From a virus (taxonomy: Duplodnaviria; Caudoviricetes), in the IMG/VR virus record IMGVR_UViG_3300033463_000005, positions 128,001-192,000 of that record: 64,000 bases of DNA; one strand, written 5' to 3'. Under the pieces are notes generated by a model. The model did not search any database. It saw only the letters and a list, made by a program, of their open reading frames with translations, and had not been told where the DNA came from. This document shows, piece by piece, positions 3,842 through 43,719 of this stretch. Position 1 is the first letter of the stretch. Every line of letters begins with the position of its first letter. Position numbers and translations under genes: made by a program.

Positions 3842-6114
3842 TTATGTCATTTGAGGAACAGATGCCAACACTGGAATTGGGTGATGTATCAAAACGATAC
3901 ATGCAATTATACGGTGTGAATATCGTGTTGCAACGTGCCATTCCAATGTTGGTTGACGGATTGAAGCCGATCCATCGACGTATCATGTATGCAATGTATC
4001 GTGTTGCACGTGGTAACATGATGAAGGTTGCAACGATTTCTGGTGAAACAATGAAGTTCTCCCCGCATTCCGACCTGGGTACAAGATACATTGTTGCCGG
4101 TTTAGCACAACCGTTTTCAAACAATGTTCCATTCTTGACTCCGAATGGAAACTGTGGTACTGCAACACATGGTGATGATGTTGCTGCAGCACGTTATTGG
4201 GACGCATCATTATCCAAATTTGCACTGGATGTATTCTTCTCTGAATTTGATGGTAAGGTCAATATGAAAGAGAATTACGATGGCGAATTGATGGAGCCAA
4301 TCACATTACCAGCAAAATTCCCAACGATTCTGTTGAATGGTTCTCATGGTATTGGATATACGATGTCGTCGGATATTCTTCCGTATAATCTGAATGAAGT
4401 TGCGGATGCAACCATCAAACTTCTTAAGAATCCAAAAGCCGATGTTCATTTGATTCCAGATTCACCGACTGGATGTGACATTATCAAACGTGATGATCAG
4501 ACATTTGTAATGCAATCATCATTTGAAATCGATAATGTGAATTACATCATCACGATCAAGAATACACCATTTGGAGAATATCTATGTGATATCGATAAAC
4601 GGTTATGTGAAATTCAGGACGGACCGAATCCAATTAAAGAGATTCTGAATGCAGATAATGAATCAGAATTGTCAGAGAACAAAATCCGATATGTGATTCG
4701 TTGTAAACCATGCAATCTGTATCAGGTAATCAATCAACTGTTCAAACGTGTTGCTGGATTCCGCATTACATTATCAACAAGAAATTGTGTTGTGGTTGAT
4801 GCAAATAACAGAACGCAAAAATATAATGAACGACAAATTCTGATGGCATGGATTACAAACAGACTGAAAGAAAAGCGTTCATTCTTCTTGAGAGAATTGG
4901 TCGCAAAGACGACGGAGTATAACATGTTGAATGGTAAGAAGTTCATGTTATCTCCGCAGAATCTGACAAAGACAATCAAAGTCTTCCGTTCCTGTAATAA
5001 GAAAGATGAAATCATTCCAGCATTGGTAAAAGCTTATGATGGCAAAGTCACAACATCACAAGCGAATTATATCTCCGGGTTATATGTATATCAATTGACA
5101 GAAGGTGAATATCAAAAGACCCTCGAGATGATTGACAAAATCACAAAGGAAATCCAATATCTAAAATCAGTTGTGGAAGATCCCGAAAAAGTCAGAGATG
5201 TTATCATTGATGATATCAAGACAATTAAATCAAAATATGGAAACCCCCGTCGTTCCAAAATACTGAATGCAAACGGCGGGGAACAAACAAACATCGGGAT
5301 CTGTCAAATTCTAACGGATGGATCCATCCTATTTTCGGAAACAGAGAATCCGGACCATTTCGCATCCGATGTGACACCAATCGATGGTGATGAAGTATGT
5401 CTGATTGATCAGTACGGAAAATCATTATGGGTGCAACTGGATAAAGTACCACATGACAAACCTCTGACATTAACATCAATTGGTAGAGAACCAATGGGTG
5501 AATGTTTGGCAGTTGTATCAAATTCAGATCGTTCCATCGTGATGTTGACCAATAAAGGTCGTATCAAATTAATGCCGATTAATAAGATACCCTCCAATCA
5601 ATCCAGAAAAGCGTTGATTCCATTGCAGGATGATGAACGCATTGTATCCATATTGGAAGTGTCTAACACGTCAGATGATTTGTTAATGTATACTTCGGAT
5701 GGATATGGCAAACGATTCTCCGTATCAGATTTGAATTCAGTTAATTCACCGGATGCACAGGGACAATTCATTGTCAAAGAGAATTGTGATGCCGCTGGAT
5801 TATTTATGGTGAATTCGAAAAAGCCGCTAATTTTCTATGTTACACGACTGGGTAGAGTCAGGGTGAATCATTCCAAGTTCTTGGTATCCGGAAAGAAGTT
5901 TGCCGGTTTGAAGCCAATCATCAAACTGTCACCACAAGATGATTTAATCGCAGTATTCTGTACAACAAACGACCGAACAGTAACATTATATCATGCGGAC
6001 GGACGTGTATCTTCTGTGAATGTGAATTCGTTGGATCCGGTGACGATGAATACACCTCCACAGAAACCAAGACATGTTCCTGGTGTGAAGGTGATTCGTG
6101 CAACAATCTCATGA
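3838..6114 (+). CDS. gyrA: Type IIA topoisomerase (gyrase/topo IV) subunit A
   Basis: RAIP..VDGLKPIHRRI, PHSD, catalytic AAARY, FPTILLNG..GIG; C-terminal beta-pinwheel repeats (LTNKGRIK, YTSDGYGKRF, VTRLGRVR). Confidence 0.92.
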   Translation: MIMSFEEQMPTLELGDVSKRYMQLYGVNIVLQRAIPMLVDGLKPIHRRIMYAMYRVARGNMMKVATISGETMKFSPHSDLGTRYIVAGLAQPFSNNVPFLTPNGNCGTATHGDDVAAARYWDASLSKFALDVFFSEFDGKVNMKENYDGELMEPITLPAKFPTILLNGSHGIGYTMSSDILPYNLNEVADATIKLLKNPKADVHLIPDSPTGCDIIKRDDQTFVMQSSFEIDNVNYIITIKNTPFGEYLCDIDKRLCEIQDGPNPIKEILNADNESELSENKIRYVIRCKPCNLYQVINQLFKRVAGFRITLSTRNCVVVDANNRTQKYNERQILMAWITNRLKEKRSFFLRELVAKTTEYNMLNGKKFMLSPQNLTKTIKVFRSCNKKDEIIPALVKAYDGKVTTSQANYISGLYVYQLTEGEYQKTLEMIDKITKEIQYLKSVVEDPEKVRDVIIDDIKTIKSKYGNPRRSKILNANGGEQTNIGICQILTDGSILFSETENPDHFASDVTPIDGDEVCLIDQYGKSLWVQLDKVPHDKPLTLTSIGREPMGECLAVVSNSDRSIVMLTNKGRIKLMPINKIPSNQSRKALIPLQDDERIVSILEVSNTSDDLLMYTSDGYGKRFSVSDLNSVNSPDAQGQFIVKENCDAAGLFMVNSKKPLIFYVTRLGRVRVNHSKFLVSGKKFAGLKPIIKLSPQDDLIAVFCTTNDRTVTLYHADGRVSSVNVNSLDPVTMNTPPQKPRHVPGVKVIRATIS

Positions 6115-14274: not shown

Positions 14275-16197
14275 TCAAGCTTTAATGACTTTTTCCAATG
14301 GTGTTTGTGTTGGTGGAATGCCACGGATTGTGTGTGATAAACCAACTGTAATTGCAGTTGAAATATCTTGGAATAGCAATCCTTGTAGAATGCCAGCACG
14401 TTGTACAGCAACACGGAATGGTTCTTTGTCATATGACATCGGATCAACATCTGATTTACCATACACGGATGCAAATGATTTATTCCCGTGTCGGCAAACA
14501 CGTCGTGCTAACATTTCATATGTGATGGAAGGACCATTCAGATCAATACCATTCAATTCCAAACAACGGAACATCAACTCTGTCATTAGATTATATGGTA
14601 ATTGTGGAGATTTACTATGTAAATATATTTGATTGATATAAAATTCAATATTTGCAACGGATTGTTGCATTGCAACTGAACACACTTGATCTCCTGCGTC
14701 ATATTGAATGATGTAATAATCTGGATCTTCCTGAATATCATCATAGATGTTGAATCGCAATGTTGCCGGAATTGTCATCAGAGTTGACAATAACACAGAA
14801 CCGTCTTCTTTGTAAAATTTTACAGGTAATACACCAAAGCTTTCACATACGGTTGCTTCAATGGAGAATCCAGAAAATTCTTCAAACAATTTTGGCACAA
14901 ATACTTTCATGATGGTTTTTGGAACAATGCATCCTTCATGAATATCATAATATGAATTTGCATCATTGAATATATACTTCTTATCGATGATGGATGCTTT
15001 TTGCGACAAGTCATGTTTTGATTTCAGTTTCTTATTCAACAATGCTTGTGTGATCGATGTGACAAGTAAACCGACATTTTGAACACCCAGATTATGGAAC
15101 ACTCTACCACCGCATTTACCACAGATTGATTCGTGGATGCAACACTGTGGAGAATACAATTCAACCGTTTTACCGACATAAGAACCAATGTTTTCCAAAG
15201 TGGTCAATACTTTCTGACCACCATCATTGATATACCGATATAATACATACTGTTTGTTTTTATCTGTGATTGTGAGTGGAATTGTTTTTGTTGTACCACA
15301 ATCGGAATTCGGATCCGCATCAATATGTTCTGACTGTAATAATGCGAGAATAATTTTTGCCATGTAACCAGAATCCGCAGTACCAACTGCAGAAGGATAT
15401 GCACCTGCAACAATAGAATTTGCAAATGCCGGAATATCCTTTTTCTTCACACCATCCATCAGTGAGGAATCGACGATATCAAATCTACCGGTAATGTTAT
15501 TAAACACAGCGCCACGCATAACATTGATCGTTTTATAGTTATTATCTAGATTACCATCGCCGGATGCATACATGTCATAGCCAGTATCACCTTTCAGATT
15601 CTGACGAACCATTTCCATCAATTCTTTTTCAATTTTATTCATTGCGAGAATTTGCTTGGTTGGATCTTTGGAATAAATATCATCGTGGTATTTTTCCATC
15701 AATTCCATTTTCCGTTGATTCACATTATGCATCGGACGAATCAATCCGGCGGAAATTGAAGTAGACAGAAATGCAGTTGCTTGGAATCCCAGTTGGTCAC
15801 GGCGGTCAACGAATTTTGCATTTGTATATGTATCAATTTGATCCGTAATAATCAAATTGTTGACAGCAACATTTAATGCACCAAGACCTTTTTTGTCTAG
15901 TGTTCGATTCCAATACCCAATAAATTGAATGACGCCAGTATATTCCAACAGGAATCGATTCATGAATAATAATCCAAGTGTTGTTTCGACAGAATCTTTC
16001 ACATATTGATATTCAGCATGAGACAGTGTGATTTTATCTGTTGGATTGAATGGTGCCTGTTTTGCTTGGTTGGTTTCTTTATCATAATATGCTGCAAACA
16101 AAGATTCCAGGAAATCCTTGTTAAATTCAGAAATATCTGCAGATAGAATTCGTTGCTTTCCAATGGTTGCATTGGATACTTGTTTCTCTATTGCCAT
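14275..16197 (-). CDS. rpoC: Multisubunit RNA polymerase beta' subunit, C-terminal part
   Basis: Bridge helix AVGTADSGYMAK, DCGT, Zn site SPQCC...ICGKCG, NVGL. Confidence 0.85.
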   Translation of the reverse strand: MAIEKQVSNATIGKQRILSADISEFNKDFLESLFAAYYDKETNQAKQAPFNPTDKITLSHAEYQYVKDSVETTLGLLFMNRFLLEYTGVIQFIGYWNRTLDKKGLGALNVAVNNLIITDQIDTYTNAKFVDRRDQLGFQATAFLSTSISAGLIRPMHNVNQRKMELMEKYHDDIYSKDPTKQILAMNKIEKELMEMVRQNLKGDTGYDMYASGDGNLDNNYKTINVMRGAVFNNITGRFDIVDSSLMDGVKKKDIPAFANSIVAGAYPSAVGTADSGYMAKIILALLQSEHIDADPNSDCGTTKTIPLTITDKNKQYVLYRYINDGGQKVLTTLENIGSYVGKTVELYSPQCCIHESICGKCGGRVFHNLGVQNVGLLVTSITQALLNKKLKSKHDLSQKASIIDKKYIFNDANSYYDIHEGCIVPKTIMKVFVPKLFEEFSGFSIEATVCESFGVLPVKFYKEDGSVLLSTLMTIPATLRFNIYDDIQEDPDYYIIQYDAGDQVCSVAMQQSVANIEFYINQIYLHSKSPQLPYNLMTELMFRCLELNGIDLNGPSITYEMLARRVCRHGNKSFASVYGKSDVDPMSYDKEPFRVAVQRAGILQGLLFQDISTAITVGLSHTIRGIPPTQTPLEKVIKA

Positions 16198-16261: not shown

Positions 16262-16306
16262 TATATATATATTATTTATATGGATAGAATATGATGGTTC
16301 TATCCA
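16262..16306 (+). promoter_or_regulatory. Putative early promoter plus 5' leader hairpin
   Basis: TATATATATATTATTTATATG followed by TGGATAGAAT...GTTCTATCCA. Confidence 0.6.
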
Positions 16307-16333: not shown

Positions 16334-17317
16334 ATGATGATGGATCTGGCAAAGTTTAACCGAATACTGATGAATCACCGAACGGGAGTATCAAAGGATA
16401 TTCCAATGAGAACTGTTCTCGGTATGCTAAAAGATACGCTGTATGTGTCAGATGATACATACCACAAAGATCTACCATACGACGAGAAGGTGAAGTTCTA
16501 TAACAAGAACATGAGCAATATTTTCAATGAAAGCGGAGACCGGCTTCCAATACCCACAGATTCTATGCGACTTGCATTGATACAACGAAATGAACGATTC
16601 TATGATGTCGTGAAATACATGCTTGTCAATTTCAATGTGGACGCAATTACGTACTACATGATTGCAAGTGGCGAATTAACAGATTCCGTTACACGGGCCA
16701 TCGAACGAAGTAGACTATGGCTGCCTCATGAAAAACGTTCTGCATATTTCGTCACAGAATATTATTACTATATGATCAAACGCGCGTTGGTACTGTCCGT
16801 ATTCGGAAAAAGATTCGAATGCGAAGTGGATTCGTTTATCAAAGACTTTGAATTCACAATGGACAACTATGTGTCGTTAATAAACTATGACGACAGGATT
16901 GAGGTGTATGGTCGAAAAGAGTATGCATACAGAGATGAACAAACCATCTGTGTTGATTATCCAAAGCAGCTTTTAATCCCAATCAATCTATTATCCGTGA
17001 ATGCGGATATCATTCATGCGGATGATATATTCGTAATCGCCGCATTTGGAGATGTGATTGTTTTGTGGAAAAACGGTGATGAATATATGGATGAGAATAA
17101 ACTCGTTTCCCCATATCGCGAATTGCTGCTTCCGGATAATGTCGACCCATACGTTCCGTTTAAGTTTGATTATGACAACGGAAAAATCATTGTCACAACG
17201 CAAAAGCATATCGTCGAGATTATTATTCACAATCTCGACTGGTCAATCGATGGTCGTGCATCCAAGACCACACGGCGTAAGGATTTCAATGTTATTAAAA
17301 GACCAGAAACTGAATGA
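16334..17317 (+). CDS. Hypothetical protein (putative early)
   Basis: Long ORF with AAAGGA RBS between a promoter motif and a terminator. Confidence 0.75.
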   Translation: MMMDLAKFNRILMNHRTGVSKDIPMRTVLGMLKDTLYVSDDTYHKDLPYDEKVKFYNKNMSNIFNESGDRLPIPTDSMRLALIQRNERFYDVVKYMLVNFNVDAITYYMIASGELTDSVTRAIERSRLWLPHEKRSAYFVTEYYYYMIKRALVLSVFGKRFECEVDSFIKDFEFTMDNYVSLINYDDRIEVYGRKEYAYRDEQTICVDYPKQLLIPINLLSVNADIIHADDIFVIAAFGDVIVLWKNGDEYMDENKLVSPYRELLLPDNVDPYVPFKFDYDNGKIIVTTQKHIVEIIIHNLDWSIDGRASKTTRRKDFNVIKRPETE

Positions 17318-17321
17318 TTGA

Positions 17322-17356
17322 AATGGGGTGCCAATGGCACCCCATTCTATTTTTTA
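17322..17356 (+). terminator. Intrinsic terminator
   Basis: AATGGGGTGCCAATGGCACCCCATT followed by a T-tract. Confidence 0.7.
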
Positions 17357-17358
17357 TT

Positions 17359-17385
17359 TTTTCATATATATATTATTAATATGAA
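17359..17385 (+). promoter_or_regulatory. Putative early promoter
   Basis: 27-mer TTTTCATATATATATTATTAATATGAA, identical at 43562-43588. Confidence 0.7.
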
Positions 17386-17949
17386 TAGAGAGGAATGGCA
17401 GCCCTCTATTCTACATCTAATTTCTCCTTAAGGGTCCCACCAACCCGGGATCGAAGAGATCCCTCTGGTCGCAGGCTTGCCAGGAAATACTTTGGTAAAA
17501 GCCTGAATAGTTGCCGGTCTATAAAACCGGAGTAATCGGTATCCTGCTAGAAATAATTCCAATAGCAGGACTCATAAGTCAGTCGCTCGTGGGATTGACA
17601 TGAGATAGGGCACACTACCTAAAACCGAACAAAGAAGCACCGCGCGCACGGCGGTGTGAGTGGTCACGAGAATCCGTTTCCATTGGTGGTGGAATTGCAA
17701 GTGCTCATTGTTGGGATGGTTTGAAACGGCCATGCCCGACCGGGTCGATTTACCCGTAAAACTGTAGGTTGAGATCTACAGTAAAGAGCCTGAGGAGCTG
17801 CTCAACCCCATATGGGGGACCTCACCATGTAAGTTGTGGTGAATGCAAATACAGGGAACGTGCACGCATGAAGTGCATTGTGAACTGTGACAACTTGGAA
17901 AGAATGTATGGGAATGGTGGTGTGGCCAATTCTCATACATTCTTTTTTT
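17383..17949 (+). ncRNA. Putative large structured non-coding RNA (~560 nt)
   Basis: No credible ORF; GC-enriched; about 15 hairpins plus candidate loop-mediated long-range pairings; own promoter and terminator. Confidence 0.7.
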
Positions 17950-17968
17950 AATTTATTTAAAATATATA

Positions 17969-17995
17969 AAAAGGAGCGCCATCAGGCGCTCCTTT
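17969..17995 (-). terminator. Terminator of the minus-strand tail operon
   Basis: AAAGGAGCGCC-ATCA-GGCGCTCCTTT with an adjacent A-tract. Confidence 0.65.
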
Positions 17996-18007
17996 ACAAT
18001 TTATTTT

Positions 18008-18262
18008 TTATTCACGAACCTTTTCGCGTCGAATAATCAACACATCTTTGTGTCCGGATTTCGCAATACCATTCATCCACTCGATATTTTGTTCATGCCT
18101 AATATTATTATTCTCGATACTGGAATAATGTTTCATTAACCATTGATCTAGTGAGGCTTGGGAATCAAATATTTTGATTCGAAGATTTGGATTCTCCAAT
18201 GATGAAGAGTCACGTCCATCACGATTTACAACAAGAATATGAACCGAACGTTCAAAAGCCAT
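18008..18262 (-). CDS. Hypothetical protein
   Basis: GGAG RBS before MAFERSVH. Confidence 0.6.
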   Translation of the reverse strand: MAFERSVHILVVNRDGRDSSSLENPNLRIKIFDSQASLDQWLMKHYSSIENNNIRHEQNIEWMNGIAKSGHKDVLIIRREKVRE

Positions 18263-21384: not shown

Positions 21385-21432
21385 TTCATTGTGGGGCATA
21401 TGCCCCACTTTCTATAATTTTAAAATTTAAGA

Positions 21433-21449
21433 TTTATATTATTAATATG
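21433..21449 (+). promoter_or_regulatory. Putative early promoter
   Basis: TTTATATTATTAATATG. Confidence 0.6.
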
Positions 21450-43518: not shown

Positions 43519-43561
43519 TTGTTTGGGATTCTGGTCTCACGCTGTATCCTATTATTCTAAC

Positions 43562-43612
43562 TTTTCATATATATATTATTAATATGAAGGGAGAAATAAA
43601 ATTGCTCTCTTT
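43562..43612 (+). promoter_or_regulatory. Putative early promoter plus leader hairpin
   Basis: 27-mer identical to 17359-17385, then AAGGGAG...CTCTCTT. Confidence 0.7.
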
Positions 43613-43719
43613 GCAAATTTTACAGGTCTCTATGAGACCAGAAAGTGAGGAATACCATGAAAATGAATTCTATTTTCAAGCGGTTGCGTCGGCAATTCAC
43701 AAATAAGGAGGAATCTATT

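Follow-up and report, generated by a model that had tools for sequence, protein, structure and literature searches.

A probable new family of large ornate RNA carried by an AR9-like jumbo phage

An AR9-like jumbo phage appears to carry a free-standing gene for a stable, nontranslated RNA of ~570 nucleotides, and this RNA is probably the founding member of a new family among the large ornate RNAs of phages; we place the probability of this reading at roughly 0.78. The phage is represented by a 258.5-kb viral contig that is 96% complete, and bases 128001-192000 of this contig form the 64,000-nucleotide stretch analyzed here (the window, to which coordinates refer unless another record is named). 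The predicted RNA has a body of ~15 helices, with a three-way junction domain, two hairpin series and at least two pseudoknots, an architecture that is shown by covariation among its homologues. Likewise, comparison of near-identical genomes shows the predicted gene to be an accessory module that extends from promoter to terminator within a variable early-gene slot. To our knowledge, elaborate conserved folds are rare among bacterial and phage RNAs longer than ~400 nucleotides, and this family would add a new fold of the large ornate kind.

Genomic setting, transcription signals and coding capacity

Just upstream of the RNA gene lies the gene for a 640-aa protein (14275-16197, minus strand) that forms part of a multisubunit RNA polymerase of the AR9/PBS1 type and whose best cultured relatives, at ~33% identity, are found in Staphylococcus jumbo phages and Bacillus phage AR9; the phage carries split RNA polymerase genes of the AR9 type. 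The RNA unit itself is placed between a terminator and a convergent gene and not within a gene (Table 1). The 327-aa orphan protein encoded upstream is without relatives in Pfam, PHROG or Atlas, and its cluster members occur solely in near-identical phages, one variant being a truncated call of 181 aa. As a partner of the RNA this protein was considered and rejected, because the phage that holds the distant copy of the RNA (see below) has no such protein. The two runs that hold the entire queried stretch are recorded as bovine gut metagenome and may represent the source sample. Across 15 studies, many runs from cattle and goat gut, including four RNA libraries, contain 6-30% of the sampled 31-mers of the 2.6-kb segment 16200-18800; these shares concern the whole segment and not the RNA in particular.

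Table 1. Positions of the RNA gene, its structural elements and its immediate neighbors in the window
Feature	Position	Strand	Details
Upstream orphan gene	16334-17317	+	327 aa; own early promoter
Terminator of upstream orphan gene	17322..17346	+	terminator scan, 11-bp stem; left neighbor of cassette
AR9-type early promoter, 27-mer	17357..17383	+	19-nt core 17365-17383; predicted start at G17383
Mobile unit: promoter core, RNA and terminator	17365..17951	+	from junction sequences of relatives
Hairpin H0	17383..17411	+	starts at +1; pair probability 1.0
Closing helix P1, 5' strand	17424..17436	+	partner 17786-17797; MFE probability 0.72-0.79
PK2, 5' strand	17437..17443	+	pairs with P8' loop 17683-17689
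Hairpins P3, P4, P5	17447..17530	+	P3 17447-17463, P4 17472-17505, P5 17514-17530; pair probability 0.85-1.0
Three-way junction domain	17536..17628	+	P6 17536-40 with 17624-28, P6a 17542-70, P6b 17571-17604, P6c 17608-20
PK1, 5' strand, in P6b loop	17586..17591	+	6 pairs with 17665-17670
Junction J6/7, invariant single strand	17629..17636	+	within 12-nt block ~17626-17637
Hairpin P7	17637..17657	+	3 double changes
Single strand and P8'	17658..17694	+	PK1 3' strand 17665-70; P8' 17678-82 with 17690-94, 7-nt loop
Hairpins P9, P10, P11	17710..17782	+	P9 17710-40, P10 17741-56, P11 17761-82; double changes: P9 5, P11 4
Candidate PK3	17770..17804	+	P11 loop 17770-73 with 17801-04; 4 pairs invariant in all sequences
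Variable 3' domain	17806..17889	+	P12 17806-17, P13 17822-42, P14 17850-89; pair probability 0.76-1.0
Long intrinsic terminator, RNA 3' end	17897..17951	+	19+3-bp hairpin 17897-17947, then U run
Bidirectional terminator	17970..17995	.	common to convergent 84-aa gene; outside RNA cassette
Convergent 84-aa gene	18008-18262	minus	shares terminator 17970..17995

The 19-nt core of the promoter occurs five times in the window with at most three mismatches (16264-16282, 17365-17383, 21431-21449, 43568-43586 and, on the minus strand, 1895-1913) where 0.09 occurrences are expected, and the motif has about 18 strong copies genome-wide and is kept in related phages. Its form, a conserved AT-rich block followed by six N and then G+1, fits the AR9 early consensus as established by dRNA-seq and primer-extension mapping (Lavysh et al. 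2017, PMC5312081). Early transcription in AR9 is independent of new protein synthesis, which led those authors to attribute it to the virion polymerase that is injected (PMC5312081). Based on this promoter homology we infer that transcription starts at G17383 and is immediate-early; that is, the polymerase that arrives with the phage DNA would start the RNA at this nucleotide.

Most copies of the early promoter are directly followed by a short hairpin at +1, variable in sequence, and then by a ribosome-binding site. The sequence of H0, the hairpin with which the RNA would begin, differs among the close variants, and given the +1 hairpins that follow most early promoters it is best assigned to the promoter type and not to the RNA-specific fold. 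Two early promoters (window 43543-43620 and genome 34966-35040) share a near-identical upstream and leader sequence over ~70 nt, and this duplicated promoter-leader module precedes ORFs of 152 and 111 aa at distant sites in the genome. At the other end of the unit, the terminator hairpin has a pair probability of 0.90-0.94 and is 100% paired in the close variants, with three one-sided, pair-preserving changes; it would stop transcription near 17950, and together the terminal hairpins at both ends should protect the RNA. The original prediction, made from this DNA alone, had proposed an early-promoter motif ahead of a unit starting at 17383 and a long terminator at its 3' end, and both signals are borne out, the +1 of the promoter coinciding with the proposed first nucleotide and the hairpin being followed by a U run.

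The unit bounded by these signals (17383-17949, plus strand) is the largest gap without an ORF of at least 60 aa in the entire genome, and its GC content is 0.47-0.52 compared with 0.39 for the genome, in agreement with its initial description as ORF-less and GC-enriched. One could nonetheless imagine that a small peptide is encoded, with the unit being an mRNA or an RNA of dual function, and short plus-strand ORFs of 46 and 60 aa are indeed present. However, none of the short ORFs has a ribosome-binding site, and all seven in the RNA stretch are uncalled in public gene sets, with none existing as a called protein among ~15 billion public proteins. Likewise, tblastx finds no peptide common to the RNA and its distant homologue (E>0.3), and the substitutions between homologues preserve base pairs, not codons. 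Furthermore, the RNA's own promoter is the only one of the 18 strong copies without an ORF of at least 50 aa starting within ~150 nt. We find a coding function barely credible in light of these observations, and the noncoding status that had been proposed for the unit holds.

The plus strand of the unit folds with a minimum free energy of -220.3 kcal/mol, compared with -169 +/- 6.7 kcal/mol for dinucleotide shuffles (z -7.7), and the corresponding value for the minus strand is z -4.5. The conserved G-U pairs, which are unable to form on the other strand, identify the plus strand as the functional one. The stems that had originally been listed by inspection are all present in the minimum free energy fold, with mean pair probabilities of 0.76-1.0.

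Homologues and a covarying fold

The homologue set consists of four sequences, namely three close variants (89-95% identity) and one distant copy. The close variants lie in contigs from other samples (L245 at 95%, L244 at 93.5% and L243 at 89% identity) and were reached through cluster members of the flanking proteins, that is, the upstream orphan and the downstream 84-aa protein. The distant copy could be reached only with nhmmer at full sensitivity (--max), being the one match in such a search of two complete relatives (E 1.8e-6), and the reciprocal search gave 1.9e-6. It occupies positions 85725-86412 of the 277.6-kb record IMGVR_UViG_3300031993_000004 and has the same layout, with an early promoter, a +1 hairpin, ~690 nt without an ORF and a long terminator hairpin; this 3' hairpin (9+12 bp) is the equivalent of the window terminator. 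The distant copy is situated elsewhere in its genome than the window copy, directly after an array of seven tRNA genes, and the two copies share no protein neighbors. In the window, ARAGORN finds neither tRNA nor tmRNA.

Two other ORF-free regions were encountered in the vicinity of tRNA genes. A few kb upstream of the tRNA array in IMGVR_UViG_3300031993_000004, a GC-rich stretch of ~450-650 nt (79300-79950) contains many degenerate short direct repeats and is iteron-like. In another relative, IMGVR_UViG_3300033463_000004, a tRNA region (244505-245193, equal to L028:4505-5193) has GC-enriched spacers of at least 300 nt between its tRNA genes; these match nothing in Rfam except tRNA and could hold other RNAs.

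Beyond these sequences, the RNA is sparsely distributed in what was searched. A sequence-only profile built from the two copies (R1) finds the RNA in 1 of 32 related jumbo-phage records, and 30 other records, six of them at least 90% complete, are without it by the same profile. BLAST of the window RNA against five relatives returned only chance 14-21-mers, and blastn of the window and distant copies against 50,697 phage records returned no match. In six relatives whose polymerase subunit is 61-73% identical, the polymerase-adjacent slot holds an unrelated ORF and no RNA. Pattern scans, which used blocks conserved between the two RNA lineages, gave a similar picture. Three scans of IMG/VR recovered the known distant copy and nothing else, apart from two chance matches in some of them, and among the 80 listed of the 116 matches of a fourth, all except the known copy are protein-coding or chance, with most of the coding matches listed falling in one conserved gene. 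A scan of JGI metagenomes yielded the same distant-copy contig and four chance matches, and the scans of GTDB genomes yielded 0 matches and 22 chance matches. It is also worth considering that the largest published survey of structured RNAs in IMG/VR was restricted to motifs of 29-151 nt with matches in three or more regions (PMC10690425), so an RNA of ~570 nt would not have been retained.

Homologue collection and a covariation analysis had been proposed as the check on the fold, and this was carried out by scoring the structure derived from the window copy on sequence-only MAFFT alignments and comparing it with slid controls in which the 3' partners were moved by 1-3 columns. In the two-lineage alignment, 88% of the cells of 73 pairs are paired, compared with 34-45% in the slid controls, and 21 pairs are changed on both sides, compared with 0-3. 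In the core of all five sequences, 96% of the cells of 67 pairs are paired (32-44% when slid) and 22 of the 67 pairs show compensatory double changes (0-3 when slid), a count reached by 0 of 500 shuffles; because the comparison comprises five sequences in two deep lineages, these statistics fall short of R-scape grade. Among the four close sequences the helices remain 100% paired despite substitutions, with the exception of H0, P1, the tip of P4 and part of P14. The alignments themselves are imperfect, in that MAFFT misaligns P7, P8' and the 5' domain, and the outer part of P1, P3-P5 and the 3' domain have no MAFFT alignment between the two lineages.

The support is distributed unevenly over the fold. 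In P1, 77% of the cells are paired in the close variants with shifts of register; the inner part is conserved and the outer part is weakly supported. Hairpins P3-P5 are invariant or changed in pair-preserving ways in the close variants, apart from the tip of P4, and the distant copy likewise has three hairpins in the same order ahead of the conserved junction, none of which MAFFT aligns with P3-P5. Within the three-way junction domain, P6a and P6b each contain three compensatory double changes relative to the distant copy and are 97-100% paired. A single-stranded block of 12 nt (~17626-17637) is identical in all five sequences. P8' corresponds in the distant copy to a stem of 7 bp that differs in sequence and encloses the equivalent loop, and among the variants P11 passes stepwise from U-A through U-G to C-G. 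A conserved core (~17437-17782) is followed by a variable 3' domain, in which the close variants display an A-U to G-C change in P13 and an A-U to G-U to G-C series in P14.

Both pseudoknots that had been proposed are supported in exactly the registers given for them. In PK1 (17586-91 with 17665-70), each of the three middle pairs differs at both positions in the distant copy, with pairing kept in every cell. In PK2 (17437-43 with 17683-89), a C-G pair becomes U-A in L243 and an A-U pair becomes G-U in L244, with 100% of cells paired; these changes fix the register and imply the hairpin formed by 17678-82 with 17690-94, so that its entire loop is engaged. PK3 should be treated as a candidate only, given that its pairs are invariant and thus without covariation; the extensions of this helix lie on different sides in the two lineages.

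Two further sequence features deserve mention. The apical loop of P7 (17644-17650) contains a self-complementary tetramer in every lineage, of which L243 and the distant copy share one version and the window type has a different one; the odds of this arising by chance are roughly a few percent, and the tetramer may form a kissing-loop contact. In the distant copy, a perfect 12-bp long-range complement connects the P6a region with the 3' domain (L059:5148-5159 and 5509-5520). This was rejected as an element of the fold, as it would form at the expense of the covarying P6a and the window copy lacks an equivalent, and it could reflect an alternative conformer or an intermolecular contact.

An optional cassette in a variable early-gene slot

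Comparison of contigs whose flanks are 94-98% identical to the window reveals three states of the slot in which the RNA gene resides. The RNA cassette is present in the window and in L243-L245, and two contigs (L237 and L238) break off inside it. In the second state the cassette is missing: L240 and L241 are without exactly 17365-17951 (+/- 3 nt), from the promoter core to the U run of the terminator, and a slightly larger segment is missing from L239, L242 and L250, with the larger deletion bounded by two 10-nt AT-rich direct repeats (17348-17357 and 18002-18011). The terminator of the upstream orphan gene is still present in relatives without the RNA, and the bidirectional terminator is kept in L240 and L241 and lost in L239. 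In the third state, the slot is filled by another cassette (L246-L249 and L251; for example L246:5255-5785, minus strand). This other cassette combines an early promoter, several hairpins and a long terminator of its own with a GC-rich, ~73-aa ORF that has a ribosome-binding site and was missed by public gene calls.

These natural deletions span the unit from promoter core to terminator and thus confirm the predicted boundaries of the gene, and the existence of near-identical phages without the cassette shows the RNA to be dispensable, with its gain or loss taking place over short time scales. As judged from these genomes, the slot is a hot spot of early-cassette exchange, and variable early-gene slots of jumbo phages would thus hold RNA genes as well as genes for small proteins. 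The patchy distribution of the RNA, its presence/absence polymorphism and the other cassettes found in the same hot spot are also what one might expect of a selfish or decaying cassette that has no function for the phage, with structure retained for stability or as a recombination substrate. However, compensatory changes keep ~15 helices and two pseudoknots intact between lineages that share just 72% identity in their RNA polymerase subunit, and the invariant junction is kept as well. Compensatory changes together with an invariant junction point to purifying selection on a specific fold and not on mere stability, and we give the selfish reading very little credence. The polymorphism, seen in a variable early-gene slot, fits a putative accessory role in interaction with the host; the functions suggested in the original prediction (scaffold, decoy or anti-defense RNA) are conjectures.

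Possible roles and comparison with known systems

It is informative to consider what a dispensable, early and elaborately folded RNA might do. Phage modules that are early, variable and dispensable usually have the host as their target, be it for takeover, exclusion or counter-defense. The large ornate RNAs characterized so far either display unusual biochemistry or, in the case of ROOL and GOLLD, assemble into RNA-only cages with no known purpose. The RNA described here has no linked protein gene, in that the compared loci have no conserved protein neighbor. We therefore rank first a reading in which the RNA would act in trans, as a folded particle, during the first minutes of infection, most likely in host takeover, in counter-defense or on the tRNA and translation machinery, as has been suspected for ROOL and GOLLD; any specific mechanism is put forward with low confidence. 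One such mechanism draws on two leads, the self-complementary tetramer in the P7 loop and the PK2 contact, in which an internal ACCA-containing strand pairs with a UGGU-containing loop. The latter resembles the way in which T-box and RNase P RNAs engage tRNA 3' ends. Hence, the RNA could conceivably be a self-assembling RNA-only particle, or a decoy of the tRNA 3' end, that neutralizes a host defense or translation factor in the first minutes of infection. We regard this proposal as speculative and rather unlikely as it stands; if true, this would be the first ornate phage RNA with both a defined infection stage and counter-defense-like accessory genetics.

A different possibility is that the RNA is a ribozyme, for example a catalyst of RNA processing or self-processing that is tied to the phage tRNA array. 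Catalysis is common among large pseudoknotted RNAs that have invariant single-stranded junctions, the 12-nt block is identical in five of five sequences, and one copy adjoins tRNA genes. Against this, neither copy matches an Rfam model for group I or group II introns, RNase P RNA or small ribozymes (nor for tmRNA, 6S or SRP RNA), no tmRNA or tRNA-like element is called, there is no tRNA gene near the window copy, and the RNA is dispensable in near-identical phages. A catalytic role therefore seems quite unlikely to us, and the trans-acting particle remains the preferred reading.

The question of family membership was addressed at several levels. A scan of the entire window with Rfam 15 matched no family at the gathering score, and with all 4227 models no structured-RNA family was matched at E<=10 for the window copy or at E<=5 for the distant copy, the weak matches on both copies being terminator look-alikes at their edges. 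The ROOL model RF03087 (gathering score 99.1 bits) likewise found nothing in both genomes and 20 related records, in a search that had no positive control. An Rfam comparison had been suggested at the outset, and at E<=10 it returned no ROOL, GOLLD, intron, RNase P or tmRNA for the window copy; the original prediction had left the choice between a divergent member of ROOL or GOLLD and a new class, and the missing Rfam match combined with strong covariation among homologues favors the latter.

The resemblance to ROOL nonetheless merits a closer look. ROOL RNAs are ~580-660 nt long with many helices and several pseudoknots, were first seen in cow rumen metagenomes and occur in phages and prophages, often beside tRNA genes, with no known protein partner or function (Weinberg et al. 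2017, PMC5737381; cryo-EM preprint 10.1101/2024.12.08.627333). The RNA described here falls in the same size class (567-690 nt), is phage-carried, comes from the rumen as ROOL did at its discovery and contains multiple pseudoknots, and the distant copy, although not the window copy, lies directly after a tRNA array, a typical context for ROOL and GOLLD. These similarities would be accounted for if it were a highly divergent member of ROOL or GOLLD. However, the 4227 Rfam 15 models match neither copy, RF03087 is silent (with the caveat on its control noted above), and the fold has about three multistem junctions (P1, PK2/P2 and P6), compared with the six reported for ROOL, and two supported pseudoknots plus one candidate. 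Also in contrast to ROOL, the promoter class and immediate-early timing can be inferred here, and the gene is seen to be an optional cassette. Divergent membership is thus very improbable in our estimation.

The comparison with GOLLD has a similar outcome. GOLLD is a large ornate RNA of phages and prophages that often lies near tRNA islands or contains them and has conserved and variable parts (Weinberg et al. 2009, as summarized in 10.1101/2024.12.08.627333); it is usually longer than 800 nt, and its expression rises during lysis of phage-infected cells (earlier work summarized in 10.1101/2024.12.08.627333). The conserved core and variable 3' domain described above are reminiscent of this organization, although there is no model match, and an early promoter here stands against the rise at lysis in GOLLD. 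For both families, tRNA encapsulation or ribosome binding has been proposed, not shown (10.1101/2024.12.08.627333).

Outside the realm of ornate RNAs, the gene resembles two known features of phage genomes. AR9 early units have the same promoter form, but the 41 early start sites of AR9 are described as upstream of annotated genes (PMC5312081), whereas here this promoter type would drive a noncoding RNA. In T4-type phages, repeated early promoter and stem-loop elements (PeSL) are found on either side of accessory genes within hyperplastic regions (Arbiol et al. 2010, PMC2839356; PMC4122927) and accompany the insertion, deletion and replacement of modules among close relatives (PMC2839356; PMC4122927). 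The +1 hairpin after early promoters, and a slot with RNA, empty and other-cassette states, are PeSL-like. The phage lineage, polymerase and motif are different, however, the cargo is an RNA gene, and the deletion junctions lie in short AT-rich repeats and not demonstrably in the promoter motif.

Taken together, the comparisons suggest that the RNA is like ROOL and GOLLD in kind and a member of neither; the searches for membership returned nothing for either family, and thus the family appears to be new although the kind, large ornate phage RNA, is known. It also offers three features that are mostly missing in ROOL and GOLLD: the time of expression can be inferred from the promoter, natural deletions mark the exact boundaries of the gene, and nearly isogenic phages occur with and without it. 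These features make the function of this RNA approachable.
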